Shown here piece after piece: positions 8,076-26,969 of a DNA stretch of 28,013 nucleotides. Both the position numbers and the translations under genes were made by a program. The stretch covers positions 1-28,013 of the IMG/VR virus record IMGVR_UViG_3300013738_000005; one strand, given 5' to 3'. Under the pieces are notes generated by a model. The model was not told the origin of the DNA. It did not search any database and saw nothing but the letters and a program-made list of their open reading frames with translations. Every line of letters starts with the position of its first letter. The stretch's first letter is position 1. Source of the stretch: a virus (lineage: Duplodnaviria > Caudoviricetes).

Positions 8076-8076
8076 T

Positions 8077-9222: not shown

Positions 9223-9482
9223 GGCGGCAATGCCTCCGACGATTCCGTGGATGCTGCGGGCAGCAGAGGAATGATCAGCCGCACGCCGGCTGGCAGCGCC
9301 GCCACAAGCGGCACGTGCGGGTTGGCGTCGACAATCGGCACATAGCGCGCTGCGTCGCCGTAATAGCGATACGCCAGCGCATCCCAGGTCTCGCCTTCCA
9401 TGGCGATGTGAGTGAGGTAACCTGCTGCGTTCATGGCTACGTTCATGGCTGCGTTCGTGGGAGCGTTCATGGATGCCTTCAT
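9210..9482 (-). CDS. Tail protein X (LysM-like)
   Basis: HIAMEGETWDALAYRYYGD...ANPH...LPPW; true start ambiguous because of N-terminal 12-bp repeats. Confidence 0.88.
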   Translation of the reverse strand: MKASMNAPTNAAMNVAMNAAGYLTHIAMEGETWDALAYRYYGDAARYVPIVDANPHVPLVAALPAGVRLIIPLLPAASTESSEALPPWMR

Positions 9483-10339
9483 GGTTGTCTCGTTGCCACG
9501 CGCGCCGCCAGCCGAGTGAGCGCAGGCCGCGCTTCGTCCAGCGCCTGCACGCCGCCGTGCACGAAGCCGGATGCGCGCTCCAGTTGTTCGAACACCGTCG
9601 CCGCCTGCGGCGCACGCAGCGCGTCACGGATGCCGATTGTGCTGCTGGCCAGCATGCCGCCCAGTTCGGCCAGGCCATCGAGATTCGAGATGCCATCTGC
9701 AGCCGCCTGCATACCCAGCACCGAGCGCATCGCGTCGCCAGCCCTGCGGCTGATGCCCGGCAGTTGCTGCAACGCCACCAGCGGATTGGCGGTCAGGCTC
9801 TGCGCATCGCGGATCAGGGAATTCACGCTTCGAATGGCATTGTCCGCCGTGCGGGCATGGCCAAGCGCCGTCTGCACCGCGCTGGCCGGGCCCGCCGGCG
9901 TACTCAGGGCGTCCGGCAGGCTGTTGCGGCCGACGATGCCTGGCGTGGCCTTTGGCCGTTTGAACTCGCCGGCATATTCCCGCAACGTCAATGAGAGCTG
10001 GGCGGACAGCAGCCGGCCACCAGCAGTGGATTTCGTGGCCGTCACGGTGCCCTCCGTGATCGCCCACGGACCGCGATAATCGCCGTCGCCCGTTACCCAT
10101 GCCAGTGGCTCCATTGCGGCAACTGCCGCCCGGATCTGGCGCAGGCGTTCCTCTACGTCGCCCAGCACGTAGTGCAGTTTGATCTCCAGCGAAATCTCGT
10201 CAAGGCTCGCGTGGACCGCTTCCAGCCGGGGCTTGCGCGAGATCAGCGCGTGCTCGGCATACTCGCCCGCGAAGCGATGGGTCATCCCTTCCGGACTGCC
10301 GACAACTTCAAACTCGATATTTCCCAGGATGGCCCACAT
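9479..10339 (-). CDS. P2 gpU-like tail protein with C-terminal extension
   Basis: MWAILGNIEF...YAEHALISRKPRLE...GDYRGPWAI...LTLREY; follows the tape measure gene. Confidence 0.85.
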   Translation of the reverse strand: MWAILGNIEFEVVGSPEGMTHRFAGEYAEHALISRKPRLEAVHASLDEISLEIKLHYVLGDVEERLRQIRAAVAAMEPLAWVTGDGDYRGPWAITEGTVTATKSTAGGRLLSAQLSLTLREYAGEFKRPKATPGIVGRNSLPDALSTPAGPASAVQTALGHARTADNAIRSVNSLIRDAQSLTANPLVALQQLPGISRRAGDAMRSVLGMQAAADGISNLDGLAELGGMLASSTIGIRDALRAPQAATVFEQLERASGFVHGGVQALDEARPALTRLAARVATRQP

Positions 10340-12873
10340 CAGATATCTCCATAGGCGCGGCGGCTCCTGCGCGCTTCGTATTGCTGCATGAGACGTTCGA
10401 ACTCGGCATAGGACGACTGCAGCCCAAGGCGAACCTGCTCGCGCACGTTGTTAGCGTCACCGCCGCTCATCGTCACCTGGATGTTCGGTGCGAATGTCAC
10501 CGTCATTGCGCCGTGACCGCCGACCGCGCCGGGCGCCGTCGATGGTGGTGCGGGAATGGACAGTGGCGGCGGTGCCGGCAGCGAGAGGCCATCCATGGCA
10601 AAAGCGGGGCTGGCCAGCGTGACCGCCGCGGCCGCCGCCATGCCCAGCGCCGCGTCGCGCACCATGCCCGTACTTCCATCGATGCCCTTTGCGGCACCTT
10701 CCGGCACGCCTGCGCCCAGCTCCATGAAGACCTTGCTCGGCGAGTTGATGCCAAGCGTCTGCTTGAACCAGCCGACCGCATCCTCGCCAATGCCGACAAT
10801 CGTGTCGCGCACCGTGCTACCCATGTCGGCGATGCCGTCGACCAGACCCTGCACCAGCATGGTTCCGAAGTCTGAGAACTTCCCCGGCAGCTCAATACCG
10901 AAGTAGCTCATCACCCCGGCAAACGCGCTATAAAAAAGGCCCAGTGGCGACCAGTCCAGGATCAGCGCGCCAACGCCCGCAAGCCCGCCATCGAAGGCGG
11001 TCTCCACCTCGGTCCATAGACCGTCGACGATTTTCGTCAGGCGTTCCCATGCGCCGTCGAACGTCTCCCGCACGGAGTCCCACAGGCCGGAAAAGAATTC
11101 GCTGATCGGTTCCCAGTGCTTGTAGATCAGGTACGCGGCAATGCCGATGCCGGTGATCAGCAGGCCGATCGGATTCATCAGCAGCGCGCGGCCGAGGAAC
11201 GATATGGCCTTGGCGGCCAGCGACAGGCCCGACAGCAGCTTGCCGGCAAGCACTTTGCCGAGACCCGAGGCGAGCATTGCCCCTCGCTTGAGAAGCGGCA
11301 CCATCAACGTCATTTGGCCGCGTAGCAGTGCCCAGCCGGCGCGTGTCCTGGCAACGCCGGTACGCAACTGCGCCAGCGGCGTGCGCACCAGGAACGAAAA
11401 GCCCAGGGCCAGCCCGGGGACGGCCAGCTTGAAGGCGGCGGTGACGGCGGCGAGTCTGACCAGGCCCTTGATCAGCCCCGGATTCGCTTGCGCAAATTCC
11501 CGTACGCGAGTGACAACCGGCTGCAGGACATCGGCCAGCTTTAGCATCTCTGGCAGCAGAACGTCGCCGATGTCCTCCCCCAGACCGCTGACATTGAGCC
11601 GCAGCTTCTTGAACTGTTCTCCGGGCGACTGCATACGCCGCGCCACGAGATCGTCGAGGGCGCCCGTGCCGTCCGTTGCGGCCATCTGCCGGTGTTCGGC
11701 CTTGTTGTTGACGCTGGTCAGCGCAAAGCGGGCCGCGTTGGCGTCCTGGAATACGCCGCCAAGGCCCATGCGCTGCAGCAGGCTGGCGATCTGGGCGTCG
11801 TTGCCGCCCTTGAGCAGCGCCTGCTGGTCCTTCGTGCCCAGTTTTTCCTGCAGCAAGCTGCCCGCCAGTTCCAGGCTGGCCTGGTACTCGCTGAGCCCAT
11901 GGGACTGCAGCGCCGCCATTTGTCCGTTGTAATCGATGTTCGCGGATTTGAGGGCGCCAGCCAGAGCGTCTTTGTCGCTGCCCTGCAGCCAGCTTGCCAG
12001 GCCCGCACGGGCGTTGTCGGCGCCCATGCTGCGCTCGGCAAGCTGCAGGCCCGCGGCCATGTCGCCAATTGTCCGTTCGCCCTTCAGGCCGGAACCCTTG
12101 ATGATGCCGCCAATTTCTTCGAACGTCTGCACCATCATCGCGGGATTGAACTTGCCTTGCTGGCCAATGGCCATGAGCTGGTCCAGCCCGCGCCGCATGC
12201 TTTCGGGGGCTTCGGCCCCCATTTCGCGCAAGGTGTTCATTGCGCCGGTGGTTGCCTCGGTCGATGTGCGCAGGGCCGTCATGACGTTGCCCATCTGCGG
12301 GATCATCGAAACGGCCTGGTCGAAGCTCGCACCGCCGCCCATCAGTTGCTGGCTGCCGGCCAGCAGCGCGGCGCTGTCCTGGTTGGTGGGGCCCACCGCC
12401 GCGCGGACGGCGCTGCCTAGTTGCGTCTCTTGTTCGGCACTGAGATTGGCGCCGATGCGCACATTGCGCACACCGTCCTGAAATGCGGCCGCTTGACCGA
12501 TGGTGGCCCCAACGCCCTTGACTGCGGTCCACACGGCCATGGCGAAACCCGCCAACTTGCTCAGTTCTCGCCGCTGTTGACGCGCAAGCCTCGTGCTGCG
12601 TGCGGTTGCCTCGCCAATTGCGGCCTGTGCGCTTTTGACCCTGAGCAAGGCTGCGTCAATTTCTTGGTACTGCTTGAGCTGCCCGGCCAGTGCGCCCCTG
12701 TCTCTTGCAAGTCCGATCAGCATGGCGCTCCGCAGGCTCTGTTGCTGGGTTTTCAGCTTGCGCATGACGGTGTCAGTGCCAAATGCCGCAGCGTGATTGC
12801 CCCCGCTTGCGGCCTTCGGCGTGCCTGCAGCACCCCCTTTGGTCTTGAGACCGGCCAGAGCTTCACTTACCAT
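10339..12873 (-). CDS. Tail tape measure protein
   Basis: 844 aa, Ala/Gly/Leu-rich; NPIGLLITGIGIAAYLIYKHWEPI, W/F repeats, LGINSPSKVF. Confidence 0.93.
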   Translation of the reverse strand: MVSEALAGLKTKGGAAGTPKAASGGNHAAAFGTDTVMRKLKTQQQSLRSAMLIGLARDRGALAGQLKQYQEIDAALLRVKSAQAAIGEATARSTRLARQQRRELSKLAGFAMAVWTAVKGVGATIGQAAAFQDGVRNVRIGANLSAEQETQLGSAVRAAVGPTNQDSAALLAGSQQLMGGGASFDQAVSMIPQMGNVMTALRTSTEATTGAMNTLREMGAEAPESMRRGLDQLMAIGQQGKFNPAMMVQTFEEIGGIIKGSGLKGERTIGDMAAGLQLAERSMGADNARAGLASWLQGSDKDALAGALKSANIDYNGQMAALQSHGLSEYQASLELAGSLLQEKLGTKDQQALLKGGNDAQIASLLQRMGLGGVFQDANAARFALTSVNNKAEHRQMAATDGTGALDDLVARRMQSPGEQFKKLRLNVSGLGEDIGDVLLPEMLKLADVLQPVVTRVREFAQANPGLIKGLVRLAAVTAAFKLAVPGLALGFSFLVRTPLAQLRTGVARTRAGWALLRGQMTLMVPLLKRGAMLASGLGKVLAGKLLSGLSLAAKAISFLGRALLMNPIGLLITGIGIAAYLIYKHWEPISEFFSGLWDSVRETFDGAWERLTKIVDGLWTEVETAFDGGLAGVGALILDWSPLGLFYSAFAGVMSYFGIELPGKFSDFGTMLVQGLVDGIADMGSTVRDTIVGIGEDAVGWFKQTLGINSPSKVFMELGAGVPEGAAKGIDGSTGMVRDAALGMAAAAAVTLASPAFAMDGLSLPAPPPLSIPAPPSTAPGAVGGHGAMTVTFAPNIQVTMSGGDANNVREQVRLGLQSSYAEFERLMQQYEARRSRRAYGDI

Positions 12874-12901
12874 TTTCGTTTGATTTCCTGTGATCCGCGT
12901 T

Positions 12902-13222
12902 ATGACGAATGAAGTTCGTGAGACCGATGTTGACGGCTATGCGCCCGCCCGTGTACTCGACATTGCATTCCGTGTACTGGTGGTTGCACAGCCTGTCGCG
13001 CTGGCAATCTGGGTGGCCATGTTTGCGCCATCCCAGTGGACATCATTTGTCGGACTGACATTGGGCGGGGCTCCTATCGTGATGCTTGCGATCTTCCTCT
13101 TTGCCGGTGTCGGTGCGGTGCTGGCCGCGCTGCTTACCGTTCCCGTTCAACTCCTCTACGCCTGTGCCAAGGGATTTGCCGAGGGCGTTGCAGAAGAAGC
13201 GAAATCAAGGCGGTCCAGGTAG
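12902..13222 (+). CDS. Small membrane protein (moron, antisense to the tail operon)
   Basis: 106 aa from MTNE with 2-3 hydrophobic segments. Confidence 0.7.
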   Translation: MTNEVRETDVDGYAPARVLDIAFRVLVVAQPVALAIWVAMFAPSQWTSFVGLTLGGAPIVMLAIFLFAGVGAVLAALLTVPVQLLYACAKGFAEGVAEEAKSRRSR

Positions 13223-13275
13223 CCCACGCAGACTTCACTTCAGATGGTTCTCCTGCTTTTCCTTTGACCCTTGTC

Positions 13276-13752
13276 ATGACCAATGAATGCCGCTGTCACG
13301 CTGAATGCCGCTGTCGCAATGAATCCATCGATCATGCTGAAGCTCTGGAATGCTTGCGCGATGAAGAGCGCCGCTTCTACCTCAGCTTTGCCCCTCCCCC
13401 TGCACGGGTAGCCACAGAGCGTGCGTTCTACGTGTCGTATTGGGTGCTGTTGTTTGCGATTCCGGCCGGTCTGCTCATCGGGCTGGTCATTCTGTTGAAC
13501 TCCTTTTATTCGATCGCCAGTGTGGGATTCTGGGTGGCGCTCTGGTTTGCGTTCCTGTTCGTTGCATTTTTGGCATGGCCTGCGTGGGATGTAGGGATGA
13601 ATCCGTTTGCCGTGATTGACGTTCCCGCCCGAATCGGTGCGGTACTGACGGCAGCGGCGGTGGCGGTGGCGGTGACGGTGGCGGTGACGGTGGCGGTGAC
13701 GGCAACATCCATCGTTGTGTACATCCGTCACCGCATCGTCAACCGCCGCTAG
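13276..13752 (+). CDS. Membrane protein (moron), probable paralogue of the preceding gene
   Basis: 158 aa from MTNE; Cys/His-rich N-terminus, about three hydrophobic segments, (AV/TV)n repeat. Confidence 0.7.
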   Translation: MTNECRCHAECRCRNESIDHAEALECLRDEERRFYLSFAPPPARVATERAFYVSYWVLLFAIPAGLLIGLVILLNSFYSIASVGFWVALWFAFLFVAFLAWPAWDVGMNPFAVIDVPARIGAVLTAAAVAVAVTVAVTVAVTATSIVVYIRHRIVNRR

Positions 13753-13935
13753 CCTGACTGCGCCCTGGCGCTGGCCTTCTCCTGCGCCAGCTCAAACCAG
13801 TTCCAGTAATCCTCCATCTCCAGCGCGTCGATTTCCGTCGGCTGCAGCTTCAGTACCAGCAGCAGCCACGCATCAACCGTTTGCAGAGCGCTGTGCGGGC
13901 ACCGGCCCATTCCCATTGCCTGCCATTTCCCGAAA
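13749..13935 (-). CDS. GpE'/GT-type tail chaperone extension, in the +1 frame relative to the chaperone (absent from the ORF track)
   Basis: Open from TTT CGG (13935-13930): FGKWQAMGMGRCPHSALQTVDAWLLLVLKLQPTEIDALEMEDYWNWFELAQEKASARAQSG*; resembles the PSEIDAM...W motif of P2 GpE'. Confidence 0.7.
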
Positions 13936-14157
13936 CTGCCGCACCAGTTCGGTGTTATCCGCCAGGTCTAGCTGGTCGATGTCTTCCATCGTCAGGCCCG
14001 TAAGCGAGGCAAACAGGAACGCCTCCTGGTCGGCTTCGTTGTCGGAGAACTTGGCGGCGGCGCGCAGATCGGCGCGCTTGCCGCGGCGCATCGTGAGTTT
14101 TTCGATGCGAAGGCCGTCAGCAGCGGTAATCGGGTGCTTCAGGATGATTTCAACCAT
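13873..14157 (-). CDS. Tail assembly chaperone (Mu gp41/P2 gpE-like)
   Basis: Start MVEIILKHPI; LTMRRGKRADL...LTGLTMEDIDQLDLAD; follows the tube gene. Confidence 0.88.
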   Translation of the reverse strand: MVEIILKHPITAADGLRIEKLTMRRGKRADLRAAAKFSDNEADQEAFLFASLTGLTMEDIDQLDLADNTELVRQFREMAGNGNGPVPAQRSANG

Positions 14158-14192
14158 GTCGGGCTCCAGTGAGGGAAAGTATCTGAGCCCCC

Positions 14193-14234
14193 ATCGTCGC
14201 AGCGGCCGCGCGTGCCGTCTTTTAATCCCCATTA
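14193..14234 (-). promoter_or_regulatory. Putative activator-dependent late promoter (chaperone-tape measure operon)
   Basis: TAATGGGGATTAAAAG-N20-GACGAT, immediately after a terminator. Confidence 0.7.
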
Positions 14235-14251
14235 AGTCAGGCTGCCCAAAC

Positions 14252-14281
14252 AAAAAAACCGCCCGGGGAAACCGGGCGGTT
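14252..14281 (-). terminator. Rho-independent terminator after the tail tube gene
   Basis: ACCGCCCGG-TTTCC-CCGGGCGGT stem-loop running into a T7 tract on the minus strand. Confidence 0.9.
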
Positions 14282-14307
14282 CTAGAGGGTGCTGCAGCGA
14301 TGGAAAA

Positions 14308-14832
14308 TTACGCCATCCCAAGGTTTGCGCGGAAGGTAGCCAGCTTGTCCTTGCCATCCACTCGGAAGATGTTGGCCAGGTAGTCCAGCATCAGCACCTC
14401 GCGGCCGTCGATCAGTTGGCGGATCGACGTGGCCGTGAACGGGCTTTCATACTTCGCCGGTTCGCGGGCCTTGTACGAGCCAAGCTGATAGCCCTTGAAG
14501 GTGACGGTGAGCAGCGATACCAGCGGCAGTTCCGCAATGCGCCCCTGGCTGGTATGCACGGAGATGCTCGAACGGCACTGCAAGTTGACCGATTCGAACG
14601 GGTTGGCCGTCAGCCTGGCCGCATCTTCATAGAGGCTGCTCCAGACGATCTTGCCTTCGATTTTCTCCAGGCCATCGGGCAGCTCGATCGCGCCCACCAT
14701 GCCAAGCCCCGAGTACTCGGAGGTCACGGCATTGATCGAGCCAAGATCGCATTCTTCCGCGCGGCCAAAGAACGAATTGCCATCGAGATACACCGCTGCG
14801 TTGGTGATCCGGTGAACCTGTGCGCCCGCCAT
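14308..14832 (-). CDS. Major tail tube protein (P2 FII-like)
   Basis: 174 aa after the sheath gene; ITNAAVYLDGNSFFGRAEE...GLGMVG...DYLANIFRVDGKD. Confidence 0.92.
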   Translation of the reverse strand: MAGAQVHRITNAAVYLDGNSFFGRAEECDLGSINAVTSEYSGLGMVGAIELPDGLEKIEGKIVWSSLYEDAARLTANPFESVNLQCRSSISVHTSQGRIAELPLVSLLTVTFKGYQLGSYKAREPAKYESPFTATSIRQLIDGREVLMLDYLANIFRVDGKDKLATFRANLGMA

Positions 14833-14833
14833 G

Positions 14834-16264
14834 TCAGTTACCTCCCTTCAGGTTGGCGAGATACTCGCCGGTGATTTCGGTTTCGAACGTGCCACGCTCG
14901 AAAGGCGGCGGCACGGTCAGCTTGTAGTTGAACAACGCGTGGCCGGCTTCCAGCTCGGTGATCGGGTTGCGGTTCGGATCGAACCAGCATTCGCCGCCGA
15001 GCAGCGCGCCGTCGCCAATCAGCTTGCGGAGAAACTGGTTGACGCTCTCCACGACATCCTCGACCAGCGCAGGGCTGATCGGGCGATCGGCAAACTGCAG
15101 TGCCGAGTATCGGATCGATTCATCGACGATATCCTTCGTGCGGCGCACGTTGATGAAGTTCTTCACGTGCGTCACGGCGGGCCAGGCGGCCGTGCGATTG
15201 CCCCAGGCGCGCAGGCCCGTGCCGAACGAATTGAACACCGTCACGATGCCAGCCTCGTTCAGCGCGTTGACCTCGCTTTGCGGATCATCGATGCGCGCGG
15301 TCAGTGGCCGCTCCACACCGATCACGCCCTTGAACTCGCTGTTCGACGGCGACCACCAGTACCCGCGCTCCAGGTCCTTTGCCGCAATCACGCCCGCCAG
15401 CCGCTGGCTCATCGGCTCCAGCCGCTCGCTGTCCGTCGCCGGATCGTAGGTGATCAGGTGCGGATAGCAGAGGATGGCGTGGCCGGAACTGGTATCGAAG
15501 TTGATGGTGCCCATGGGGCCGCGTCCTGCAATTGCCTGTGACGGGCTGATGCCGATCGGCGCGTCGATCAGCGCCTGGCCACCGAAGCGCTCGGCTGCCG
15601 CAATCATCGCCGTGGACACGGCCTTGGTCGTGCAGTACCCCGGCGCAAGGATCAGCTTGGCGAAGTAGCCAAAGAGGCTATATGCGTCGTCCAGCGCCTT
15701 GAGGCCAGTACGCAGCCCCGCTGCGTCCACCGCGCCGATGATGTCGGCCACGGTGACCTGCGCGGGGTCGGCGTAGCTGTAGCTGGCCAGCACAGTGGCG
15801 CCTGCCGGAATGGCGCCGCTCTCCCGGCGTTGCAGTCCGCCCGTTGCACAATCCAGGTCGTAATCGACGCCCCGCTGATAAGCGGTCTTGCCATCGCTGC
15901 TGGCCAGCGACGTCAATGCGATCACGGCCGGATGGTCCAGTCTGACGCGGCCGCTGGCCGCGAATGTCTGCACCTCGTTGCTGACTTCCGCGCGATGCCT
16001 GACTGGGTCCAGTACGTTGACGACCAGCACGGTGCCGGCGCCATGATCGTGAATGGCCTTGAGCGCGGCGGGAACGGTGAAGCCCGGCAGATCCGGGCCG
16101 AACTGGGCGCCGTCGCGGTCGGACAGGCACTGCGTGAGCGTATTGACCGCGCCCGCCGGAGCGGTGCCGATCAGGGCAATCACGGCGGATTTCACAACCC
16201 GGATCGGCCGGGCGCCGTGGTCTTTCTCGATCGTCTCGATACCGTGCAGGTAATTAGCGGCCAT
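14834..16264 (-). CDS. Contractile tail sheath protein (P2 FI-like)
   Basis: NYLHGIETIE...SAVIALIGTAP...YWWSPSN...WGNRT...FINVRRT. Confidence 0.96.
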   Translation of the reverse strand: MAANYLHGIETIEKDHGARPIRVVKSAVIALIGTAPAGAVNTLTQCLSDRDGAQFGPDLPGFTVPAALKAIHDHGAGTVLVVNVLDPVRHRAEVSNEVQTFAASGRVRLDHPAVIALTSLASSDGKTAYQRGVDYDLDCATGGLQRRESGAIPAGATVLASYSYADPAQVTVADIIGAVDAAGLRTGLKALDDAYSLFGYFAKLILAPGYCTTKAVSTAMIAAAERFGGQALIDAPIGISPSQAIAGRGPMGTINFDTSSGHAILCYPHLITYDPATDSERLEPMSQRLAGVIAAKDLERGYWWSPSNSEFKGVIGVERPLTARIDDPQSEVNALNEAGIVTVFNSFGTGLRAWGNRTAAWPAVTHVKNFINVRRTKDIVDESIRYSALQFADRPISPALVEDVVESVNQFLRKLIGDGALLGGECWFDPNRNPITELEAGHALFNYKLTVPPPFERGTFETEITGEYLANLKGGN

Positions 16265-16517
16265 GTTTCGATTCCTTGGTGGTGGCGGCCGGCGCCTTGC
16301 CGGTCAACGTTGCATCGGAGGCGGCCGACTGAACAGCCGCTGGCTGCGCCACTTCCTGCAGGCGCTGCTGCGCCAGCAGGGCCTGCGTAAAGCCGTGCTC
16401 CGCCGGCAAGCGGACAGTGCCGCCTGGATAAAGAAGGATGTCGAGCGTTTCACCGTCGACGGTAAGCGATGTGCCCGAGAACGGGCCGCTATAGCGATAA
16501 AGCGTCAGTTTGCTCAT
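16254..16517 (-). CDS. Small conserved phage protein upstream of the sheath (Mu gp38 position)
   Basis: YRYSGPFSGTSL...V.LPAEH; overlaps the sheath start. Confidence 0.75.
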   Translation of the reverse strand: MSKLTLYRYSGPFSGTSLTVDGETLDILLYPGGTVRLPAEHGFTQALLAQQRLQEVAQPAAVQSAASDATLTGKAPAATTKESKHGR

Positions 16518-17001
16518 GTGCGAGATCTTCGCCAAAGGAGTGTGGAAAGAGTGACCCGGGCGAACCGGGGCCTGCGGATTGCACGTGCACCGTGCGCGTG
16601 GACCAGTCCTGCGCGTACTGCCAGATGCCTGGTTGCTGCCCCAGGTACCGCTCCACGATCGGGCGCAGCGGCCGGTCGCAGTGCGCCGGCACGAATCCGG
16701 TCAGCGTGTCGCGCACGCGGTCCAGGTAGCAGATGACGCCGTGCGGGCCGTTCAACTGGCGAAACACGAGCGTGAGCGGCAACGTCAGTTCGCGCTCGGC
16801 CCACACGGCATCGGTCGAGCGGTCCGGGCCGTATTGGCCCTGGGAGAATCCCAGCAGCAGCGCGCCATGCGGATGGGTCAGGTGGAAGTCCTCCCGGACG
16901 TAGTCGACCTCCATCTCCTGCCCGAAGGCCCAACGCAGGCGCGTGAGCACGTCGTTCAAGATGGCCTGGGTAATACCGTCGCCATTGCCTGCGTTGCTCA
17001 T
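16489..17001 (-). CDS. Mu Gp37-family tail terminator/completion protein
   Basis: HLTHPHGALLLGF...RQLNG...LDRVR...LTGF...GIWQY; first intact gene after the head scar. Confidence 0.8.
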   Translation of the reverse strand: MSNAGNGDGITQAILNDVLTRLRWAFGQEMEVDYVREDFHLTHPHGALLLGFSQGQYGPDRSTDAVWAERELTLPLTLVFRQLNGPHGVICYLDRVRDTLTGFVPAHCDRPLRPIVERYLGQQPGIWQYAQDWSTRTVHVQSAGPGSPGSLFPHSFGEDLAHEQTDALSL

Positions 17002-17099
17002 GACAATCCGCATTGCGCAAGGCGCGCGTGTGTTGCCGTGGCCATGGGGTTGGCCTGTTGCAGATCAGCCAGCGTGAAGTTGTGCAGCGTCTTTTTCAT
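16998..17099 (-). pseudogene. 33-codon chimeric mini-ORF: probable protease (I) start fused to a gp36 head-tail adaptor relic
   Basis: MKKTLHNF|TLADLQQANP|MATATHARLAQCGLS*; follows the late promoter; stop overlaps the gp37 ATG (ATGA). Relic identities are from recalled family N-termini. Confidence 0.55.
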
Positions 17100-17127
17100 G
17101 AGCGGCTCGCGCGGTGGATATGCGAGC

Positions 17128-17169
17128 ACTCTGACGCGATTCGGGGCGGCCGGCTTTTAATCGACTTTA
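17128..17169 (-). promoter_or_regulatory. Putative activator-dependent late promoter (former head operon, now driving gp37-sheath-tube)
   Basis: TAAAGTCGATTAAAAG-N20-CAGAGT. Confidence 0.7.
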
Positions 17170-17390
17170 GTGTTGGACGGGCAGGTTGAGGAAAGTCTGC
17201 CGCATGCGGCGGGCATCGGGCGCTCCAAGCGTGACAGGGAGACGTGCGGATGCGTTTATGGCACTTTATAAAGCCGCAATGCGCATACGGTGGCATCAGT
17301 GTCTACCCCGGCAGGGCAAACTGCACTATGGGCGCGCCTTGCTCTCCATCTTTTTGCTCGCCACCTCTTTGACAGGATGGTGCCGGTTAG

Positions 17391-17474
17391 GAGATCGTCA
17401 TCCTGAAACCCATACGCGCGCTTCCAGTACGCGCTGATCGGGCATCCCCTTGCCGCCAGCGCTTCCTCAAGGGC
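17391..17474 (-). pseudogene. Fused relics resembling small terminase (gp27/DUF3486) and portal (gp29/DUF935)
   Basis: One frame reads ALEEALAARGCPIS|AYWKRAYGFQDDDL; the halves resemble recalled motifs of B3-type TerS and portal, in the expected order. Confidence 0.5.
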
Positions 17475-17808
17475 ATGCTCCGTTCATCTGCACGACTTCC
17501 AGCTTGCTGTAGAGCGCGTCGAGCTTCGCCTCGATCACGCTTTGCCCGCGCACGTAGTCTTCGCGGCGCACGTAATGCACTGGCAGTTCGGCTTTGAAGT
17601 TCATGAACTCGCGCTCCAGGCGCGCAACCGCTTCGGCATCCTTGCCGATCTGCTCGAGCAGCGCCGCAATCTGTTTTTCCTGCCGCTGATCGCGCTCCGA
17701 CTGGCGCCGCTCTATCTGGGCCAGCAGCATCTTGCCCACACCGGCCGTGAAGCCCGCGAACGTGATGAACAGCGACACCAGGTGCCAGAACTCCACTGCA
17801 ATACTCAT
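17467..17808 (-). CDS. Conserved Mu-like phage protein normally between the lysis and terminase genes (N-terminal TM, coiled coil)
   Basis: VEFWHLVSLF...LPVHYVRREDYVRGQSVIEAKLDAL. Confidence 0.8.
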   Translation of the reverse strand: MSIAVEFWHLVSLFITFAGFTAGVGKMLLAQIERRQSERDQRQEKQIAALLEQIGKDAEAVARLEREFMNFKAELPVHYVRREDYVRGQSVIEAKLDALYSKLEVVQMNGACP

Positions 17809-18084
17809 CTACATCTCCTGTTTGCCCGGCAAGCGGTGGATGACCCAGTCCACCAGGTCAACGAGCCGCCCCGCGCAGATCCCGTACTGGTCATACGTAT
17901 CCTTGAGCGCAAGCGCGACATCGTCCGCGCTAGGGCTCGCCGGGGCCGGTGGTGGCGGGCACGGCGCCTCGTACGCCGCCGGCAGCACCGGCTGCAGCCC
18001 GTTCACGGGCGGCCTCGATGAGCCGCATGACGCCATCATCAAAGCTGCAATCAGCACGGCTGCTGGCTGTCTGGCCAAGCGCAT
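17809..18084 (-). CDS. o-spanin (Rz1-like lipoprotein)
   Basis: Signal peptide with lipobox MASC, Pro-rich, YDQYGICAG; overlaps the i-spanin in another frame. Confidence 0.82.
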   Translation of the reverse strand: MRLARQPAAVLIAALMMASCGSSRPPVNGLQPVLPAAYEAPCPPPPAPASPSADDVALALKDTYDQYGICAGRLVDLVDWVIHRLPGKQEM

Positions 18085-18337
18085 TGCGTAACTCCCTGGT
18101 CGATTTCTGGTCCTGTGCGGCACGCGCGGTGAGCGCCTCACGCATGTCCTGGCTGGCCGACTGGGCGTCGACGATCAATTGCCGATTCGCATCAAGCAGC
18201 GCACCCATCTCGCCAATCGTCTTGTCGGCTGCGCGGGCGTGCTGGGCCGTGGCCTCGACGTGCCGCCCGAAGGTAAAGCCGCCACCCGCGGCGGCCACTG
18301 CGCCCAGCACACCGATCAACGCGAGGCGGGCCGTCAT
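17930..18337 (-). CDS. i-spanin (Rz-like)
   Basis: Start MTARLALIG coupled to the endolysin stop; N-terminal TM, helical periplasmic part, single C-terminal Cys. Confidence 0.8.
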   Translation of the reverse strand: MTARLALIGVLGAVAAAGGGFTFGRHVEATAQHARAADKTIGEMGALLDANRQLIVDAQSASQDMREALTARAAQDQKSTRELRNALGQTASSRADCSFDDGVMRLIEAARERAAAGAAGGVRGAVPATTGPGEP

Positions 18338-18942
18338 GTGCAGCTCCCTTGCCCCCAGCCGGCCCGCATGTAGGCCGGCTCCAGCGTGCGCAGGATGCGA
18401 TGGGAGTAACCACGGTTCTGGCGCCAGTTCGCCGCCGAGCGACCAGCATTGACGGTTTCGACGGCGTTCCACCAGCGCAGAGCATCCAGGCCGTCCCGCC
18501 TTGCCACGGCTTCATCGCGGTAGACCCAGCCCAGGCCGCCGTTGTAGGCCGACAGCGTCTTGGCCATACGGTCGCAGCGCGTTGCAGCCTTGACGCGCTT
18601 CCACAGGTGCAGGTCATAAGTGACCAGCGCCCGCAGCGCCCAACCCGGATTGAATGGCTGCCTGGCGGACAGTGCCGGATAGGCTTGCGCGATCCAGTCC
18701 GCTGTTGCTGGCATGAACTGCGCCATGCCCTGGGCGCCCGCATACGACACCACGCCGGGCCGCCAGCTGCTTTCCTGGTGAATCTGGGCGGCGAAGGTGG
18801 CAATCGGTGCATCCATGCCCCACATGGCGCGCGCAGTGCGTGTGAGATCGGCGCGGTAAGGGGTGGCGGATGCGGGGACTTGTGCGATCGATATATGGCA
18901 CGTCAGCGCCAGCGCAGCACCGGCAAATTGCAGCGCGCGCAT
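18334..18942 (-). CDS. Endolysin, SLT lytic transglycosylase with N-terminal signal/SAR segment
   Basis: AAQIHQESSW (catalytic Glu), GAQGMAQFMPATA, LSAYNGG. Confidence 0.93.
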   Translation of the reverse strand: MRALQFAGAALALTCHISIAQVPASATPYRADLTRTARAMWGMDAPIATFAAQIHQESSWRPGVVSYAGAQGMAQFMPATADWIAQAYPALSARQPFNPGWALRALVTYDLHLWKRVKAATRCDRMAKTLSAYNGGLGWVYRDEAVARRDGLDALRWWNAVETVNAGRSAANWRQNRGYSHRILRTLEPAYMRAGWGQGSCT

Positions 18943-18943
18943 G

Positions 18944-19285
18944 TCAGAGCCCCAGCGCCACGCCGATCACGATGCCCGTGACGATCATCGCGCGGCGCAG
19001 CATGGCCGCCGCGAAGACGTGGCAATATCCGTCGACGACCGGATGGTCGGCCTTGTCATAAGGTTCATCCGTACCGTCGCGCCAGTCTTGCCGCAGGTAC
19101 GAATCCGGCCGCGCGTAGGGGAACAGGGCGCGATCAAGCCAGTAGCCGACAACGGCCGCCAGGCTGATGAGGCTGAGCTTGTAAAGCACCACCGGCAGCT
19201 GCTGCGGCGAGACGAGTGCAATGACGGCGATCAGGATGGCGGCGGCAAGCAGCCAGCCGATCATGCGCGGGAAAAGCTTGGACAT
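18944..19285 (-). CDS. Putative holin (2/3-TM family)
   Basis: SPQQLPVVLYKLSLISLAAVVGYWLDRALFPYARPDSYL...AAMLRRA; directly before the endolysin. Confidence 0.88.
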   Translation of the reverse strand: MSKLFPRMIGWLLAAAILIAVIALVSPQQLPVVLYKLSLISLAAVVGYWLDRALFPYARPDSYLRQDWRDGTDEPYDKADHPVVDGYCHVFAAAMLRRAMIVTGIVIGVALGL

Positions 19286-19313
19286 TTGACCCTCCAGACG
19301 TGAACATGCCGCC

Positions 19314-19355
19314 ATCATCGGCGGCATGGGAGGGAGGGTCTTTTAATTGGGTTTA
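19314..19355 (-). promoter_or_regulatory. Putative activator-dependent late promoter (lysis operon)
   Basis: TAAACCCAATTAAAAG-N20-GATGAT. Confidence 0.7.
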
Positions 19356-20511: not shown

Positions 20512-20976
20512 TTACTGCTTTTTTTTAACGGGCTGCTTCGGCGTGGCTGCTTTCACCTTGAAGGTGTGGCTGCCGCCGGTGACATGCTGCGCGCCGACGG
20601 GGCCGTGAATGACCGGCGAAGAGGGGACGGTCGCCGTGGCTTTCGCTGTGGATTTCGTTGTGGATTTCGCCGGTGCGGCGCCGCCCAGCATGAAGGCCAG
20701 CATCCGTTTGCGCGTTTCAGCGTCCAGTCCTCGATACCCCTCAAGAAGTACGGTTTCTTCCGGCGTCAGCGATGCGGCGGAGCGAATTCCCGTAATGACG
20801 TATTGAACGTCAACGCCGAATCTGGCCACCGCCGCCAGATAGTCCATATCCGGTGCACGGCTACCGCTTTCGTAGTTGATCTGCGTGGTTTTTCCTACTC
20901 CTGCGATAGAAGCAAACCGCGTCTGGCTCATGCCCAAACGCGTGCGCTCTTCCTTCAGTCGCACAGAAGGGTTCAT
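20512..20976 (-). CDS. XRE-family HTH prophage repressor (no S24 peptidase domain)
   Basis: RLKEERTRLGMSQTRFASIAGVGKTTQINYESGSRAPD...GVDVQYVITG; divergent from ner. Confidence 0.92.
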   Translation of the reverse strand: MNPSVRLKEERTRLGMSQTRFASIAGVGKTTQINYESGSRAPDMDYLAAVARFGVDVQYVITGIRSAASLTPEETVLLEGYRGLDAETRKRMLAFMLGGAAPAKSTTKSTAKATATVPSSPVIHGPVGAQHVTGGSHTFKVKAATPKQPVKKKQ

Positions 20977-21024
20977 ATTTGTGAACTATTTGTTGTTGAC
21001 AGGTTCACAAACGTGAACCACAAT
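20971..21024 (+). promoter_or_regulatory. Early promoter with two palindromic operators
   Basis: TTGACA(20996)-17 bp-CACAAT(21019); GTTCAT-N4-GTGAAC (20971-20986, over the repressor ATG) and GTTCAC-N4-GTGAAC (21003-21018, in the spacer). Confidence 0.8.
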
Positions 21025-21104
21025 TTCACTCACAAACAGCAGCGAATTCACCCGCAAAGAGACTTCGCAACTGCTCTCCCGAAAACTTCACACGGAGGTC
21101 AACC

Positions 21105-21296
21105 GTGACCATCACGCGCTTCAAAGCCCTGCTCAGAAGCCAGGGTAAAACGATCCGCCAATGGGCTGAAGAGAACGACTTTCCGGTTGGCGCCGTCTAC
21201 CGCGCGCTTAACGGGGTGGACAAGGGCCACCACGGTCGAGCCCACGAAATTCTTGCCAAGGCCGGCATCAAGCAGCCTTTGCAGCTTGCCGCCTGA
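21105..21296 (+). CDS. Ner/Cro-like DNA-binding protein (BcepMu gp16 type)
   Basis: GKTIRQWAEENDF...VYRALNG...GRAHEI; RBS GGAGG; first early gene. Confidence 0.85.
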   Translation: MTITRFKALLRSQGKTIRQWAEENDFPVGAVYRALNGVDKGHHGRAHEILAKAGIKQPLQLAA

Positions 21297-21320
21297 GGCT
21301 CGCCATGAATATGCCGAGTT

Positions 21321-21392
21321 CCGTCCGTGCCGTCTTTGCCGTTTGCGGCATCCATGACGTCTGTACCGTCCGCGCCGTCCGTGCCGTCTTTT
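21321..21392. repeat. Eight degenerate 9-bp tandem repeats (consensus CCGTCYGTG)
   Basis: ccgtccgtg ccgtctttg ccgtttgcg gcatccatg acgtctgta ccgtccgcg ccgtccgtg ccgtctttt. Confidence 0.85.
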
Positions 21393-21483
21393 CCCTTGAT
21401 CCGGTGCGAATTATCCACTGGCAGACACACAGCTTGCAATTGTCTTGCATCAGTCACAAAGCGGATAGCCGGGAGACTGAACA

Positions 21484-21798
21484 ATGAATGGCCCGGAATC
21501 ACCGAAAACCGCTCAATCCGCCGGCAAGGTGCTGGACGTGCTGACCGTGCTGCTGGGGCACTTCGCCCACGGCCTCACGCCTACCGAGTTGGCGAAGGCC
21601 ACGAGCCTGGAGCCGAGTTCCATTACCCGTTACGTGGCCACGCTGGAAGACAAGGGTTTTGCCGAGCGCATCCCCGAGACCGGGCGCATTCGTCCGTCCA
21701 TCCGGCTTGCCCAGCACGCGGTCGGCATCATGCGCAGCCTTGACGCGGCCCGCCAGCGTATTGACGCGGTCAGCGCCCGTTTGACGACTCAGCTTTAA
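21484..21798 (+). CDS. IclR-type winged-HTH protein
   Basis: KVLDVLTVLLGHFAHGLTPTELAKATSLEPSSITRYVATLEDKGFAER. Confidence 0.85.
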   Translation: MNGPESPKTAQSAGKVLDVLTVLLGHFAHGLTPTELAKATSLEPSSITRYVATLEDKGFAERIPETGRIRPSIRLAQHAVGIMRSLDAARQRIDAVSARLTTQL

Positions 21799-21807
21799 GG
21801 AGCAGAC

Positions 21808-22755
21808 ATGGCACGGAAGCCTTCATCCCCCAACAACACCGCCGTGATCGTGACGGATGCCGATACACCTGGCCTGCCGGCCATGCGCGATGCGGCCAAT
21901 CAGCTTGCCGTCATGCACGTCGAACAGGACGCCACCGTGCGCGCGGTAGCTGCCCAGCTTGGCTATCAACTGCCGGCCGACTGCACGGACCCGGACCTGA
22001 TCCAGCGCGATATCGCCGCCAATATGCGCCGCAGCGTGGAGGCGTGTCTGGAGGTCGGGCGCGGGCTGCGGGTTTTGAAGGAGGCGTGTGAGCACGGGCG
22101 CTTCATGGTTCGGCTAGACGTGCTTGGCATCGAGGCCAGTGTTGCCCGTCGCTTCATGGAATCGGCAACCAAGTTCGCGAAACGTGCGACGTCGCACGTT
22201 TTGAACGCAGCGGGTAACCAGTCGAAGCTGTTCGAAATGCTGATCCTGGACGACGAACAGATCGAGGAACTGGAGCTGACCGGCCAGACTGGCGAACTGA
22301 AGCTGGATGACATAGCCACGATGAGCGTCAAGGAACTGCGCGCGGCGCTTCGTGAATCGCGGAACGTTGCCGAGGCGCGTTCGCGTCTGCTGGAGGACAA
22401 GGACACCAAGATCAACGAGCTTGACGAGGCGCTGTCCAAGGCCAGGAAGCGTGTGAAGGCGGTGCCGCCCGCTGAAGTAGGCGATGAGATTCGCAAGGAA
22501 GCCGCGGCGCTGGCCGCCCAGGCCGAGGTTGTCATTCGCGCGACGGGCGCGGGCTTGGCGGCCTTGAACGAGCACACCGAGGCGCACGGTATTGACCACG
22601 GCGCCTTTGCCGCCGGCCTGATCTGTCAGCTTGAGCGGACCATTCGCCAACTGCGCGACGAGTTCGACATCCAGGCCATGCCGGATGCCGACGACACGCC
22701 GGACTGGATTCGCAACGATCCACCGGCCATCGACACCACCGCCGCCGAGGTGTAA
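21808..22755 (+). CDS. DUF3102-like conserved Mu-like phage early protein
   Basis: LEVGRGLRVLKEACEHGRF...ARRFM...LDDIATMSVKELRAALRE; precedes the transposase. Confidence 0.78.
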   Translation: MARKPSSPNNTAVIVTDADTPGLPAMRDAANQLAVMHVEQDATVRAVAAQLGYQLPADCTDPDLIQRDIAANMRRSVEACLEVGRGLRVLKEACEHGRFMVRLDVLGIEASVARRFMESATKFAKRATSHVLNAAGNQSKLFEMLILDDEQIEELELTGQTGELKLDDIATMSVKELRAALRESRNVAEARSRLLEDKDTKINELDEALSKARKRVKAVPPAEVGDEIRKEAAALAAQAEVVIRATGAGLAALNEHTEAHGIDHGAFAAGLICQLERTIRQLRDEFDIQAMPDADDTPDWIRNDPPAIDTTAAEV

Positions 22756-22758
22756 TCC

Positions 22759-24564
22759 ATGAGCGCCGTCCTGACAGAAATGCTGGTTGCGGTGGCACAG
22801 GCTGCCCGGAAAGCCGGGCACGGCGGCAAGGGAGCCATCTACGCATCCGCGTGCCGAGAGCTTGGGCTTTCCTACGCCACGCTGATGCGCAAAATCAAGG
22901 CAGTGAGTGTGACGGACCATCGCAAGCGCCGCACCGATGCAGGCAGCACCGCGCTTTCTCGTGACGATGCGAGGATGATTTCAGCGGTCCTCATGGAGTC
23001 CACGCGCAAGAACGGCAAGCGTCTTTACTCTGTCTCCGATGCTGTCACGGCGCTGCGGGCTGACGGCTTGATCCGCGCCGAGTATCTGGACTTGGACACG
23101 GGCGAACTGCGGCCGCTATCGGACAGCACGATTCATCGCGCGCTGCGCGTGCACGGCCTGCACCCGGACCAGTTGGCGGCGCCAGCGCCGGTCACGGAAC
23201 TGGCCAGTCTGCACCCCAATCATGTCTGGCAGATCGACGCCAGCCTGTGCGTGCTCTATTACCTGAAGCCTTCAGCCGATGCGCGGGCCAACGGGTTGCG
23301 CGTGATGGACCAGGACACGTTCTACAAGAACAAGCCCAGGAACCTTGCGCGCATTGCAGCGGACCGGGTGTGGAGCTACGAGATCACCGACCACACCAGC
23401 GGCTGGATCTACGTCGAGTATGTGATGGGCGCGGAGTCCGGCGAGAACCTGTGTTCGGTGCTGATCAACGCGATGCAGGAGCGCGGCGATGCGGACCTGC
23501 TGCACGGCGTGCCGCGCATCCTGATGCTCGATGCCGGATCGGCCAACACCGCAGCGATGACCCGCAACCTGTGCCATTCGCTCGGCATCGCGCTGATGCC
23601 GCACGCTGTGGGCAATGCCCGTGCGACTGGCCAGGTGGAGAACGCCCGCAACATCATCGAGCGCAAGTTCGAATCGGCCCTCAGGTTTCAGCCGGTGAAC
23701 AGCCTGGAGGAACTGAACGCGCAAGCCCGCAAGTGGCGCATGCACTTCTGCGCATCGGCCGATCATCGCCGCCACGGCATGACGCGCAGCGCGGCCTGGA
23801 TGGCGATTCGTGCCGATCAGCTGATCAAGGCTCCGCCTGTCGACGTATGCCGGGAGCTGGCTGTAGCGGCCCCGGAAAGCCGCCGGGTGGCACCGAAGCT
23901 GCGTGTTTCCTTCCGCGGCTGCGAGTACGACGTGTCGACCGTGCCAGGTGTCATGGTCGGCGAGAAGGTCATGGTCACCCGCAACCCGTGGCGCGACGAT
24001 GCCGCCCAGGTGGTGCTCGTGGACGAACACGGCTACGAGGTTTTCCACGTGGTCCACGCGGTGCGGAAGAACGAATTCGGTTTCAGTGCCGAAGCGGCAA
24101 CCATCGGCGAAAGCTACAAGCGTCATGCCAACACGGCGGCGCAGACCGCGCTGAAGGAAATCGAACAGCTGGTGACGGGGACCGATTCCGTGTCGGCGGC
24201 CGTTGCGGCCCGCAAGGCAAAGGCGCTGCCATTCGGCGGCCGGTTCGATCCATTCAAGCACATCGACGACGCCACGTTGCCGACGTACCTGCCGCGACGC
24301 GGCACTGCCCACTCGCTTGTTGCGCCGACGGTTGAACTGCCGCCGCTGTCGCACGTCGAGGCATCGAAGCAACTCAAGGCGCGGGTGGAGGCCGGCGGCG
24401 GTACATGGTCGGCCGAGCGGTTTCGCTGGTTGCAACAGCGCTACCCCGCTGGCGTCCCCCAGGAGCAGCTCGACGCGATCGCCGCCGAGCTTGTCGGCCC
24501 ACGTTCGAACTCGGGTCATCAAACGCCGCTGCAGGTCGTGCGTGCGGCGGCAGGAGGTCAATGA
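22759..24564 (+). CDS. DDE transposase (MuA equivalent), intact
   Basis: RKRRTDAG; catalytic triad WQIDAS / LMLDAGSAN / GQVEN; 601 aa uninterrupted. Confidence 0.93.
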   Translation: MSAVLTEMLVAVAQAARKAGHGGKGAIYASACRELGLSYATLMRKIKAVSVTDHRKRRTDAGSTALSRDDARMISAVLMESTRKNGKRLYSVSDAVTALRADGLIRAEYLDLDTGELRPLSDSTIHRALRVHGLHPDQLAAPAPVTELASLHPNHVWQIDASLCVLYYLKPSADARANGLRVMDQDTFYKNKPRNLARIAADRVWSYEITDHTSGWIYVEYVMGAESGENLCSVLINAMQERGDADLLHGVPRILMLDAGSANTAAMTRNLCHSLGIALMPHAVGNARATGQVENARNIIERKFESALRFQPVNSLEELNAQARKWRMHFCASADHRRHGMTRSAAWMAIRADQLIKAPPVDVCRELAVAAPESRRVAPKLRVSFRGCEYDVSTVPGVMVGEKVMVTRNPWRDDAAQVVLVDEHGYEVFHVVHAVRKNEFGFSAEAATIGESYKRHANTAAQTALKEIEQLVTGTDSVSAAVAARKAKALPFGGRFDPFKHIDDATLPTYLPRRGTAHSLVAPTVELPPLSHVEASKQLKARVEAGGGTWSAERFRWLQQRYPAGVPQEQLDAIAAELVGPRSNSGHQTPLQVVRAAAGGQ

Positions 24565-25763
24565 TGTTGAAGCTGAAGAACGTGCTGCAACAGGTGGGCC
24601 GCAAGCAGTCGGAGTTGGCCAAATTCCTTGGTCTGAGCCAGGCCGCCGTTGCGCAGATCATCAACCACGGTGAATGGCCGAAGAGTCTCGACGAACTCGA
24701 TCTGCGGGAGCGGGTTGTCGATTTCCTCGGGCTGCACGGTGCGCAGGAGGAGGTCTTGGCCTGCGTCTTTGAACAGGTGGGCGAGCCGGGTGCGGACTGC
24801 GCGTCGAACCTCCCATCGAACCCCACTCCGGAAACCAAACAGGACAAACAGGAGGACTCCATGCTACTGCGAAAGCAGACGCTTCTCCCCAATACACGCA
24901 AGCATTTCGGGATGTTCCGCGATCCGTTTGCCGATGACGCGATCCAGTCGCACGAGGACATGTACTTGAGCCCGGATATCCGTTACGTGCGTGAGGCCAT
25001 GCTGCAGACCGCAAAGCACGGCGGGCTGCTGGCGGTGGTGGCCGAGTCCGGCGCGGGCAAGACCACGCTGGTGCGCGATCTGGAAGACCGGATCGTGCGC
25101 GAAACGCAGCCCATCCTGCTGATCAAGCCTTACGTGCTGGCAATGGAAGACAACGACGCGAAGGGCAAGACGCTGAAGGCCACGCACATCGCCGAGGCCA
25201 TCATGGCTGCGGTGGCGCCGCTGGAGAAGCCCAAGAGCAGCCCGGAGGCGCGCTTCGCGCAACTGCATCGCGCGCTCAAGGAGAGCCACGCGGCTGGCTA
25301 CCGGCATTGTCTGCTGATCGACGAGGCCCACGCGTTGCCGGTTCCGACGATCAAGCACCTGAAACGGTTCTTCGAGCTTGAGATGGGCTTCAAGAAGCTG
25401 CTGTCGATCATCCTGATTGGCCAGCCCGAACTGCGGGTCAAGCTGTCCGAGCGCAACCAGGATGTGCGCGAGGTTGTGCAGCGCTGCGAAATGGTTGAAC
25501 TGGCGCCGCTCGACGGTGGCCTGGACGAGTATCTCAAATTCAAGCTTGAGCGCCTGGGCAAGCCGGTTGCCGATGTGATCGACGCCGGCGGTATCGACGC
25601 CCTGCGTGTGCGGCTGACCGCGGCCAGCACGCGCCGCGATCGGGCCGAGACGGTGTCGCTGCTGTATCCGCTGGCCGTGGGCAACCTGTTGAAGGCAGCG
25701 ATGAACCTGGCGGCAGAGCTTGGCGTGCCGACCGTGACCGCTGACGTCGTGAGGGGGGTGTGA
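24561..25763 (+). CDS. MuB-like/ExeA-type AAA+ transposition ATPase with N-terminal HTH
   Basis: Walker A ESGAGKTT, Walker B LLIDEAH, ILIGQPEL; ATGA-coupled to the transposase. Confidence 0.92.
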   Translation: MMLKLKNVLQQVGRKQSELAKFLGLSQAAVAQIINHGEWPKSLDELDLRERVVDFLGLHGAQEEVLACVFEQVGEPGADCASNLPSNPTPETKQDKQEDSMLLRKQTLLPNTRKHFGMFRDPFADDAIQSHEDMYLSPDIRYVREAMLQTAKHGGLLAVVAESGAGKTTLVRDLEDRIVRETQPILLIKPYVLAMEDNDAKGKTLKATHIAEAIMAAVAPLEKPKSSPEARFAQLHRALKESHAAGYRHCLLIDEAHALPVPTIKHLKRFFELEMGFKKLLSIILIGQPELRVKLSERNQDVREVVQRCEMVELAPLDGGLDEYLKFKLERLGKPVADVIDAGGIDALRVRLTAASTRRDRAETVSLLYPLAVGNLLKAAMNLAAELGVPTVTADVVRGV

Positions 25764-25764
25764 C

Positions 25765-26037
25765 ATGCCAGTGATCATCTCCGGGCCGCCTGTGGCCGAT
25801 CCGCGTGCGTTGTCCCATGACGACCTGGTGCGTCATGCCGAATCGTTGCAGCGCTATGGCTGGAAGGTGTTCGATGCTGTGGGCAAGCTGCTTGAGCTGA
25901 ACGAGATCAGCCGGGAGACGCTAGTGCGGATCATCGACGCCCACGAGGCGGGCAATGTCGAGGAACTGGTCATGCTCCTGCAGGCGTGCGCGGACGGCAG
26001 ACGTGAAGCCGGTGCGGCCCGGCAATCGGTCCACTAG
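25765..26037 (+). CDS. Hypothetical phage early protein
   Basis: 90 aa, tightly packed after the ATPase with a G-rich RBS. Confidence 0.65.
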   Translation: MPVIISGPPVADPRALSHDDLVRHAESLQRYGWKVFDAVGKLLELNEISRETLVRIIDAHEAGNVEELVMLLQACADGRREAGAARQSVH

Positions 26038-26053
26038 TTTGAGGGGGAGTGCG

Positions 26054-26329
26054 ATGCCAATGCCAACGTCCATGCTTGGACCCGCGGCCAGCGAAGTGCG
26101 ACAGAGCCTGGCTAGCGTTACGGCGGAATTCAAACGAATGATTCATGCGATCCGGCTGCGGCGCGAGCTGGCCGTCATGACGCGCGACGAGATCAGGGCG
26201 GCGGCCGAGATCGAGTGGCTGCGCGGTGAACTCGCCCGACATGAGGCAAACCTGCGTGGGCTTTCCAGGCTCTACACCCGACGACGCATCCGTCTCCTTG
26301 CGCAGCTTGAGCGCGTGGGCGGGCGGTAA
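26054..26329 (+). CDS. Hypothetical phage early protein
   Basis: RBS GAGGGGGAG before ATG 26054; 91 aa, helical, Arg-rich. Confidence 0.6.
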   Translation: MPMPTSMLGPAASEVRQSLASVTAEFKRMIHAIRLRRELAVMTRDEIRAAAEIEWLRGELARHEANLRGLSRLYTRRRIRLLAQLERVGGR

Positions 26330-26373
26330 CTCTTTTCCATAGGTTCAACATGATCAGCAAGGAATAACAAGCC

Positions 26374-26895: not shown

Positions 26896-26907
26896 CCGCT
26901 GCACTTC

Positions 26908-26969
26908 GCGAAACACTCGCCGCGGCGGGTGTCTGCCTGGCGTGGTGGCCTGGTACTGATGAGCAGCCG
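26908..26969 (+). ncRNA. Type II hammerhead ribozyme
   Basis: GC-GAAA(26910-13); stem III ACACUCGC/GCGGGUGU; GUC cleavage triplet (26931-33); stem I UGCCUGGC/GCCUGGUA with loop GUGGUG; CUGAUGA(26956-62)-GC. Confidence 0.85.

Follow-up and report, generated by a model that had tools for sequence, protein, structure and literature searches.

A BcepMu-type prophage with its head module reduced to a 0.46-kb scar, a candidate early-stage R-type tailocin

Introduction

Is a phage that has lost its head but kept its tail simply decaying, or is it being turned into something else? The question is raised by a 28,013-nucleotide stretch of viral DNA (positions 1 to 28,013 of IMG/VR record IMGVR_UViG_3300013738_000005; hereafter the window). 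Headless prophages and tailocins with Mu-type tails are already known (see excerpts of PMC4542187, PMC12090994 and PMC6629978). The route from prophage to tailocin is usually inferred from end products whose scars have been erased, and in the window the breakpoints are still readable.

Results

A defective BcepMu-type prophage in a Cupriavidus-like host

Scans of 41 ORFs with Pfam and PHROG profiles identified a BcepMu-type transposable prophage (Table 1), with a DDE transposase, a transposition ATPase, a Mor/C activator, the gene order of the family and an element end that starts with TG, position 495 being in register with the terminal base of BcepMu. One side of the ORF array carries the repressor, transposase, ATPase, Gam, GemA and Mor/C, and the other the holin, endolysin, spanins, gp25, gp37 and a P2-like tail. 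No tail, lysis, transposase or activator gene is interrupted or shortened (transposase, 601 aa; ATPase, 400 aa, also full length), and Mor retains the QxDLF clamp motif, the consensus of which is given in an excerpt of PMC12867686. The tail module consists of gp37, gp38, sheath, tube, chaperone, tape measure, U, X, D, V, W, J, I, the fibre and a putative fibre chaperone; this contractile set is complete except for the S/G equivalent, the fibre chaperone being assigned from its position. The window holds one element end only, the left end lying beyond 28013. Judging from the flanking acetyltransferase gene, the host is Cupriavidus-like.

Pfam, PHROG and profile searches of the 28,013-nt window found no intact capsid, portal or terminase gene, and what remains of the head genes is relics only. 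With its head and packaging module in this state, the element is a defective BcepMu-type derivative, non-viable as a phage.

The ancestry of the element is mosaic: positions 17809-27637 (lysis, transposition) are nearest to Ralstonia prophages and positions 3098-17004 (tail) to another subgroup (L145-L165). The C-terminal two thirds of the tail fibre (3718-5085), which would determine the target range, have neither a Pfam match nor a 90% relative. Two membrane-protein-like ORFs without a family match (12890-13752, plus strand) lie antisense between the tail chaperone and tape measure genes and are possible morons or immunity genes. A non-coding element before gemA (26907-26979) is 79-89% conserved in 46 matches and has a hairpin-like arrangement.

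Table 1. Features of the window discussed in the text (positions are those of the window)
Feature	Position	Strand	Remarks
Host flank: GNAT acetyltransferase	1..468	plus	best named relatives: Cupriavidus, 86%
Intact element end	495..537	plus	72% over 43 bp with BcepMu terminus, E 0.15
Dam-family methylase, frameshift near codon 110	1531..2321	minus	split in both assemblies
P2-like contractile tail module	3098..17004	minus	late boxes at 14236 and 7418
Putative gp36 head-tail adaptor start (Phage_Mu_Gp36/DUF1320), codons ~5-17	17037..17075	minus	alternative: protease codons ~24-33
Putative prohead protease start (Mu I equivalent), ~8 codons	17076..17099	minus	weak alone; position behind box as expected
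Probable retained gpG-protease (G-I) intergenic region	17100..17329	minus	upstream TTTATAAA box at 17272; late-promoter-like box 17171-17152
Probable portal relic (Portal_Mu/DUF935), residues ~377-391 of ~490	17391..17432	minus	in frame with TerS relic, no start codon of its own
Putative small terminase (TerS) relic (Phage_Mu_Gp27/DUF3486), codons ~31-45	17433..17477	minus	profile, DNA and in-place tests
gp25-like membrane protein, after lysis genes	17467..17808	minus	last codons now supplied by TerS relic
Lysis cassette: holin, SLT endolysin, Rz, Rz1	17809..19327	minus	late box upstream at 19357
Late-promoter-like boxes	19357 before holin; 17171 in scar; 14236 before tail chaperone; 7418 before baseplate wedge	minus	weight matrix
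Repressor, Ner-like, IclR-type HTH, gp10-like, transposase, transposition ATPase, Gam, GemA, Mor/C activator	20512..28013		full length compared with relatives

Relics of head genes in the scar

Intact relatives carry gp26, TerS, TerL, portal, F, G, protease, capsid, gp35 and gp36 after gp25. Here gp26-gp36 are missing (about 8.4 kb; 8.36 kb), and the interval between gp25 and gp37 is reduced to positions 17005-17477, a scar of about 0.46 kb in which the pieces follow the ancestral order: TerS, portal, some 60 bp, the G-I intergenic region, the protease start and the gp36 start. A preliminary description had reported two peptides in one minus frame directly after the gene that follows the lysis genes, and had assigned them to TerS and the portal. 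Both are present at 17477-17391, the frame being translated as HALEEALAARGCPIS and then AYWKRAYGFQDDDL.

The second peptide (17432-17391) is, on strong evidence, a portal relic, as had been claimed: 12 of its 14 residues are identical to portal residues 366-379 in intact kin (E 6e-7 in a set of 741 head ORFs), and none of 300 shuffles reaches its 27.0 bits against a profile of close relatives. It was not significant with the broad-family profile (15/60), and its exact degenerate pattern had no match in viral contigs. For the first peptide (17477-17433) the claimed TerS identity has moderate support. It scores 16.4 bits at positions 31-45 of the TerS profile and is weak as a free match (9/300 shuffles, and a spurious match elsewhere with 16.5). 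Tested in place against four upstream head families, its score was equalled in 7 of 800 shuffles and by 4 of about 800 random window pieces; it shares 72% over 39 bp with a TerS gene at the DNA level, and its mean BLOSUM score is 24.4 against TerS compared with 9.8 against the sequence upstream of the portal motif. The latter comparison rules out that the 29-residue stretch is contiguous portal. Pfam has no match in either peptide.

The piece assigned to the G-I intergenic region likewise has strong support (0/100 shuffles score as high). The roughly 60 bp before it (17330..17390, minus) were not significant against portal, F and G, with 173 of 300 shuffles as high, and may hide one further junction. 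The protease and gp36 starts are weak on their own (22/500 shuffles), and at the DNA level the gp36 start reaches 75% over 49 bp (E 1.5e-4). Positions 17084-17055 may represent gp36 or a second protease piece; either way two junctions would lie to the right of the intergenic region. As a 3' end of gp36 before gp37, positions 17005..17036 (minus) were not significant (138/500 shuffles), and for gp26, TerL, F, G, capsid and gp35 nothing in the scar reached significance in profile searches. When the scar was compared with raw loci by six-frame tblastn, GC-rich off-frame noise drowned any signal. The colinear similarity to TerS, portal, protease and gp36 that had been expected is thus strong for the portal, moderate for TerS and weak, taken alone, for the other two.

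Number and placement of the deletions

From this arrangement we infer about five junctions, namely gp25/TerS, TerS/portal, portal/intergenic, protease/gp36 and one within gp36. Measured on the RS24 prophage, the corresponding deletions are, in the same order, ~0.4, 3.1, 1.6, 2.9 and 0.35 kb, and the rebuilt genome is 36.1 kb long, equal to that of intact kin. The earlier expectation of at least four junctions in ancestral order is thereby borne out. The right breakpoint lies between the head adaptor gp36, which is lost, and gp37, which is kept and whose BcepMu homologue has a weak tail-terminator match; gpG (Phage_tail_S) is among the lost genes.

Could the scar be a single deletion combined with chance similarity, or an assembly artefact? 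Such an explanation would agree with the shortness of the TerS, protease and gp36 relics, with their weakness as free matches and with the absence of Pfam matches in both scar peptides. It is largely refuted, and in our judgement scarcely credible, because the portal relic (0/300) and the G-I region (0/100) lie about 1.6 kb apart in intact kin and by themselves require at least three junctions; the TerS, portal and G-I pieces come from separate places, which contradicts one contiguous ancestral segment. A second assembly of the probable source run is identical over 15500-19500, which excludes a mistake by a single assembler as the source of the scar, the run being the same and the support in this sense not biologically independent. 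Another run (X2) yielded short low-depth pieces only, with 201 bp identical at 17862-18062 and none covering the scar, and a further one (X3) only short chance-like matches.

Under neutral placement of independent events, the probability that the four later deletions all start in the head remnant is 2e-5 to 1.2e-3, while that of sparing the tail and lysis genes is 0.06-0.10. The pattern therefore favours keeping everything outside the head, transposition included.

A late-promoter-like box spared in the scar

A 20-bp box is found in 37 of 46 G-I regions. The weight matrix derived from these regions has exactly four sites in the 28 kb of the window, all on the late strand and before late genes (Table 1), and among 206 holin homologues 72 have a scoring site upstream. 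In Mu, the four late promoters require an activator of the Mor/C family and have no -35 box (PMC12867686, in excerpt). For this reason we read the box as a late promoter element, and the four boxes are likely to be Mor/C-dependent late promoters of this phage family. Neither a sigma-70 consensus promoter nor a minus-strand terminator was found in 16900-17600, the former as expected of Mor/C promoters, which lack the -35 box. The scar box (17171-17152), which the preliminary description had not mentioned, was spared while DNA was deleted on both its sides. No other observation argues as well for selection on late-gene expression.

Age of the scar and erosion elsewhere

Six of 51 relic residues are unseen in relatives, compared with 3.9 expected for functional members and with 9.8% in the intact genes of the window; in conserved columns the values are 2/32 for the relics and 79/1354 for the intact genes. 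There is no excess of substitutions by which the relics could be dated, their selection for similarity biasing the test towards no decay, and hence they give no proof of elapsed time. No stop codons are seen in the tail genes, where about three would be expected at an assumed neutral divergence of 1%.

Outside the head, the Dam-family methylase is frameshifted and two early spacers are short, both in regions of natural variation: Ner-IclR has 188 bp against a median of 1103 (1 of 27 as short), and ATPase-GemA 1218 against 2458 (1 of 64). Erosion is therefore not strictly head-only. The Ner-IclR spacer (21297-21483), about 0.9 kb shorter than in kin, contains a duplicated stretch of ~25 bp and a 60-bp piece conserved in relatives, and is possibly a second scar. 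The methylase gene sits behind a Com-like gene, followed towards the element end by a C5 methylase (594-1445).

These results bear on the interpretation offered in the preliminary description, that junctions confined to the head reflect long-term selection on the tail and not one accident. The confinement agrees with the four later deletions (P at most 1.2e-3) and is qualified by the methylase and the two spacers. "Long-term" goes beyond what undatable relics can show, and for "on the tail" the chance of missing tail and lysis genes (P 0.06-0.10) is too high to demonstrate it.

The element is a singleton. Of eight of its proteins sought in the collection, six are present, each alone in its cluster, on two contigs, and neither sheath nor gp25 has a match in 78 genomes of the genus (one genome per species, the nearest records possibly missing), a gp25 query control having recovered 15 of 15 positives. 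No second copy or insertion site was seen, and contig depth is 87.7 for the element and 92.6 and 96.7 for the matching host allele, a weak hint only. In the other strains of the run the sequence departs from the window just before the element end, and the loose ends found at 469 and 480, each known from 30 letters, may be their empty-site alleles.

Other headless loci

Of the 235 loci in which gp25 and the gene after it could be recognised, 204 continue to gp26 or TerS and 31 pass straight to gp37 or gp38. Of 32 other headless loci, 31 retain the box with at least 10 bits, the exception being L054; these counts are not independent, and the set of 32 includes L313, with four duplicates left out. 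In a quick sheath tree of 59 rows, 25 enterobacterial-type rows cluster together, L310 and L313 stand separately beside head-bearing phages, and the window joins a group of nine further rows at support 99, the loci of eight of these containing head genes; the other headless loci thus occupy three further places. The scars differ as well, L313 retaining gp26, which the window lacks.

Two further headless BcepMu-type elements were observed. G666 (L313; L349/L350) retains gp26 as well as a transposase of full length, with a likely protease start following the late box, and in G665 (L346) the transposase is split. The fixed enterobacterial loci (L351:10718-28297, L347, L348, L019-L032) have Mor, lysis genes, gp25, the late box, gp37 and the tail; in the Phytobacter and Dryocola loci there is no phage transposase, and Mor is the sole one of the regulatory and transposition genes. 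In E. coli IAI39 this cluster (ECIAI39_RS22315-22205) is a fixed chromosomal locus adjoining lysC, and most of the query is matched in 189 of 5426 E. coli genomes. Our literature search found no functional study of the lysC-linked cluster.

Discussion

Possible origins of the element

The best explanation, which we put at about an even chance, is that about five deletions stripped a prophage of its whole head module and that the remainder was kept as an early-stage R-type tailocin, probably still able to transpose. Inactivation of the repressor would switch on the early operon and with it the Mor/C activator, and expression from the four late boxes would follow; headless tails would assemble, be capped by gp37, be released by holin, endolysin and spanins, and kill strains bearing the receptor of the fibre. 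Deletions taking the scar box or a tail gene would be selected against, which would account for the loss on both sides of the box, and with a transposase that looks intact the locus could still copy itself within its host. BceTMilo, with its head deleted, gene S gone and the integrase retained, is an active headless particle (PMC5411513, in excerpt), a sign that such losses can leave something functional. A contractile tail set without intact capsid, portal or terminase, linked to a lysis cassette and a late activator, is what a tailocin has, and the element likely works like one. We do not class it as a tailocin because the transposase and ATPase are kept at full length and there is no fixed locus among host kin (0/78 genus genomes; singleton clusters). 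Textbook tailocins have lost their replication genes, as far as the excerpts of PMC4542187 and PMC12090994 go, and the retained transposition genes count against the tailocin reading.

Ordinary recent decay, in which head and packaging genes were lost fast, neutrally or to relieve the host, and the remainder is not yet broken, is rather unlikely in our view. The undecayed relics, the singleton status, the methylase frameshift and the short early spacers would all fit it, and the junctions may then stem from one or two complex repair events and not from five spaced ones. Rapid large deletions are a described mode (PMC13626063, in part), and prophages that are incomplete have generally shed capsid, portal and terminase genes and show an excess of tail fibre and transposase genes (PMC7744054, in part). 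However, the same source describes lysis genes as preferentially lost, and here they are intact; five junctions are crowded into 0.46 kb, as against none in the roughly 20 kb that hold other essential genes, and the late box is spared both here and in nearly all other headless loci.

Mini-Mu is a model for a transposing element that depends on a helper and is packaged by it. An element of this type would transpose, be packaged in the heads of a co-infecting BcepMu-type phage and bring its own tail and fibre. In its favour are the undamaged genes for transposase, ATPase, Gam, GemA and Mor together with one undamaged end, the neutral-placement test, by which retention of all that lies outside the head is favoured and not of the tail alone, and the full-length transposase of a second headless element (L313, G666). 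Nevertheless, we consider this origin improbable: there is no sign of a second copy or insertion site, the depth giving the same weak hint, and no helper was identified, the other end and any packaging site lying outside the window.

Extending the tailocin explanation to the other loci, we tentatively suggest, as a somewhat doubtful generalisation, that BcepMu-type phages repeatedly became tailocins by deleting around the head-tail late promoter, keeping gp37 and then losing transposition. The window, G666, G665 and the enterobacterial cluster would be four independent stages, the window still transposing and its scar recording each step.

Comparison with known systems

We found no description of a transposase-bearing BcepMu-type headless element or of head deletions that spare a promoter in a literature search that covered few subscription papers and no supplements; PMC9205054 concerns, in the part seen, a different and intact prophage. 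In four lineages of one phage family the head was cut out in the same way, with one late-promoter-like box and the gp37 gene left in place. The locus offers a concrete test of whether head loss and promoter retention suffice for a weapon and whether a tailocin can stay mobile, and it points to a widespread enterobacterial headless cluster for functional study.

The window resembles BcepMu, phiE255, Ralstonia phage YO107_2 and the RS24 megaplasmid prophage in gene order, lysis cassette, P2-like tail and terminal sequence, its transposase being 80-83% identical to those of YO107_2 and RS24. Unlike these four, which carry gp26-gp36, it has a 0.46-kb scar, and its tail is nearest to another subgroup (sheath 73-76%, L145-L156).

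Among elements without a head, BceTMilo of Burkholderia cenocepacia has likewise kept tail, lysis genes, repressor, late activator and an integration gene, the equivalent of gene S being missing according to the excerpted text of PMC5411513. In the same text BceTMilo is of the P2/KL3 lineage, has a tyrosine integrase and Ogr, is active and is common to several strains, whereas the window is Mu-type, a singleton and known here from sequence alone. R-type syringacin is also a tailocin derived from a phage with a Mu-like tail, but it has lost the replication genes too and is fixed between trpE and trpG (PMC4542187, as far as excerpted). The enterobacterial lysC-linked cluster (IAI39, Phytobacter L088, Dryocola L091) shares Mor, holin, SLT endolysin, gp25, late box, gp37, tail and outer breakpoints with the window. 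In contrast to the window, it is widespread, has no matches to a phage transposase, repressor or spanins, and has a gap of 117-231 bp in which no head relics were noted, and on the sheath tree it has a separate origin.
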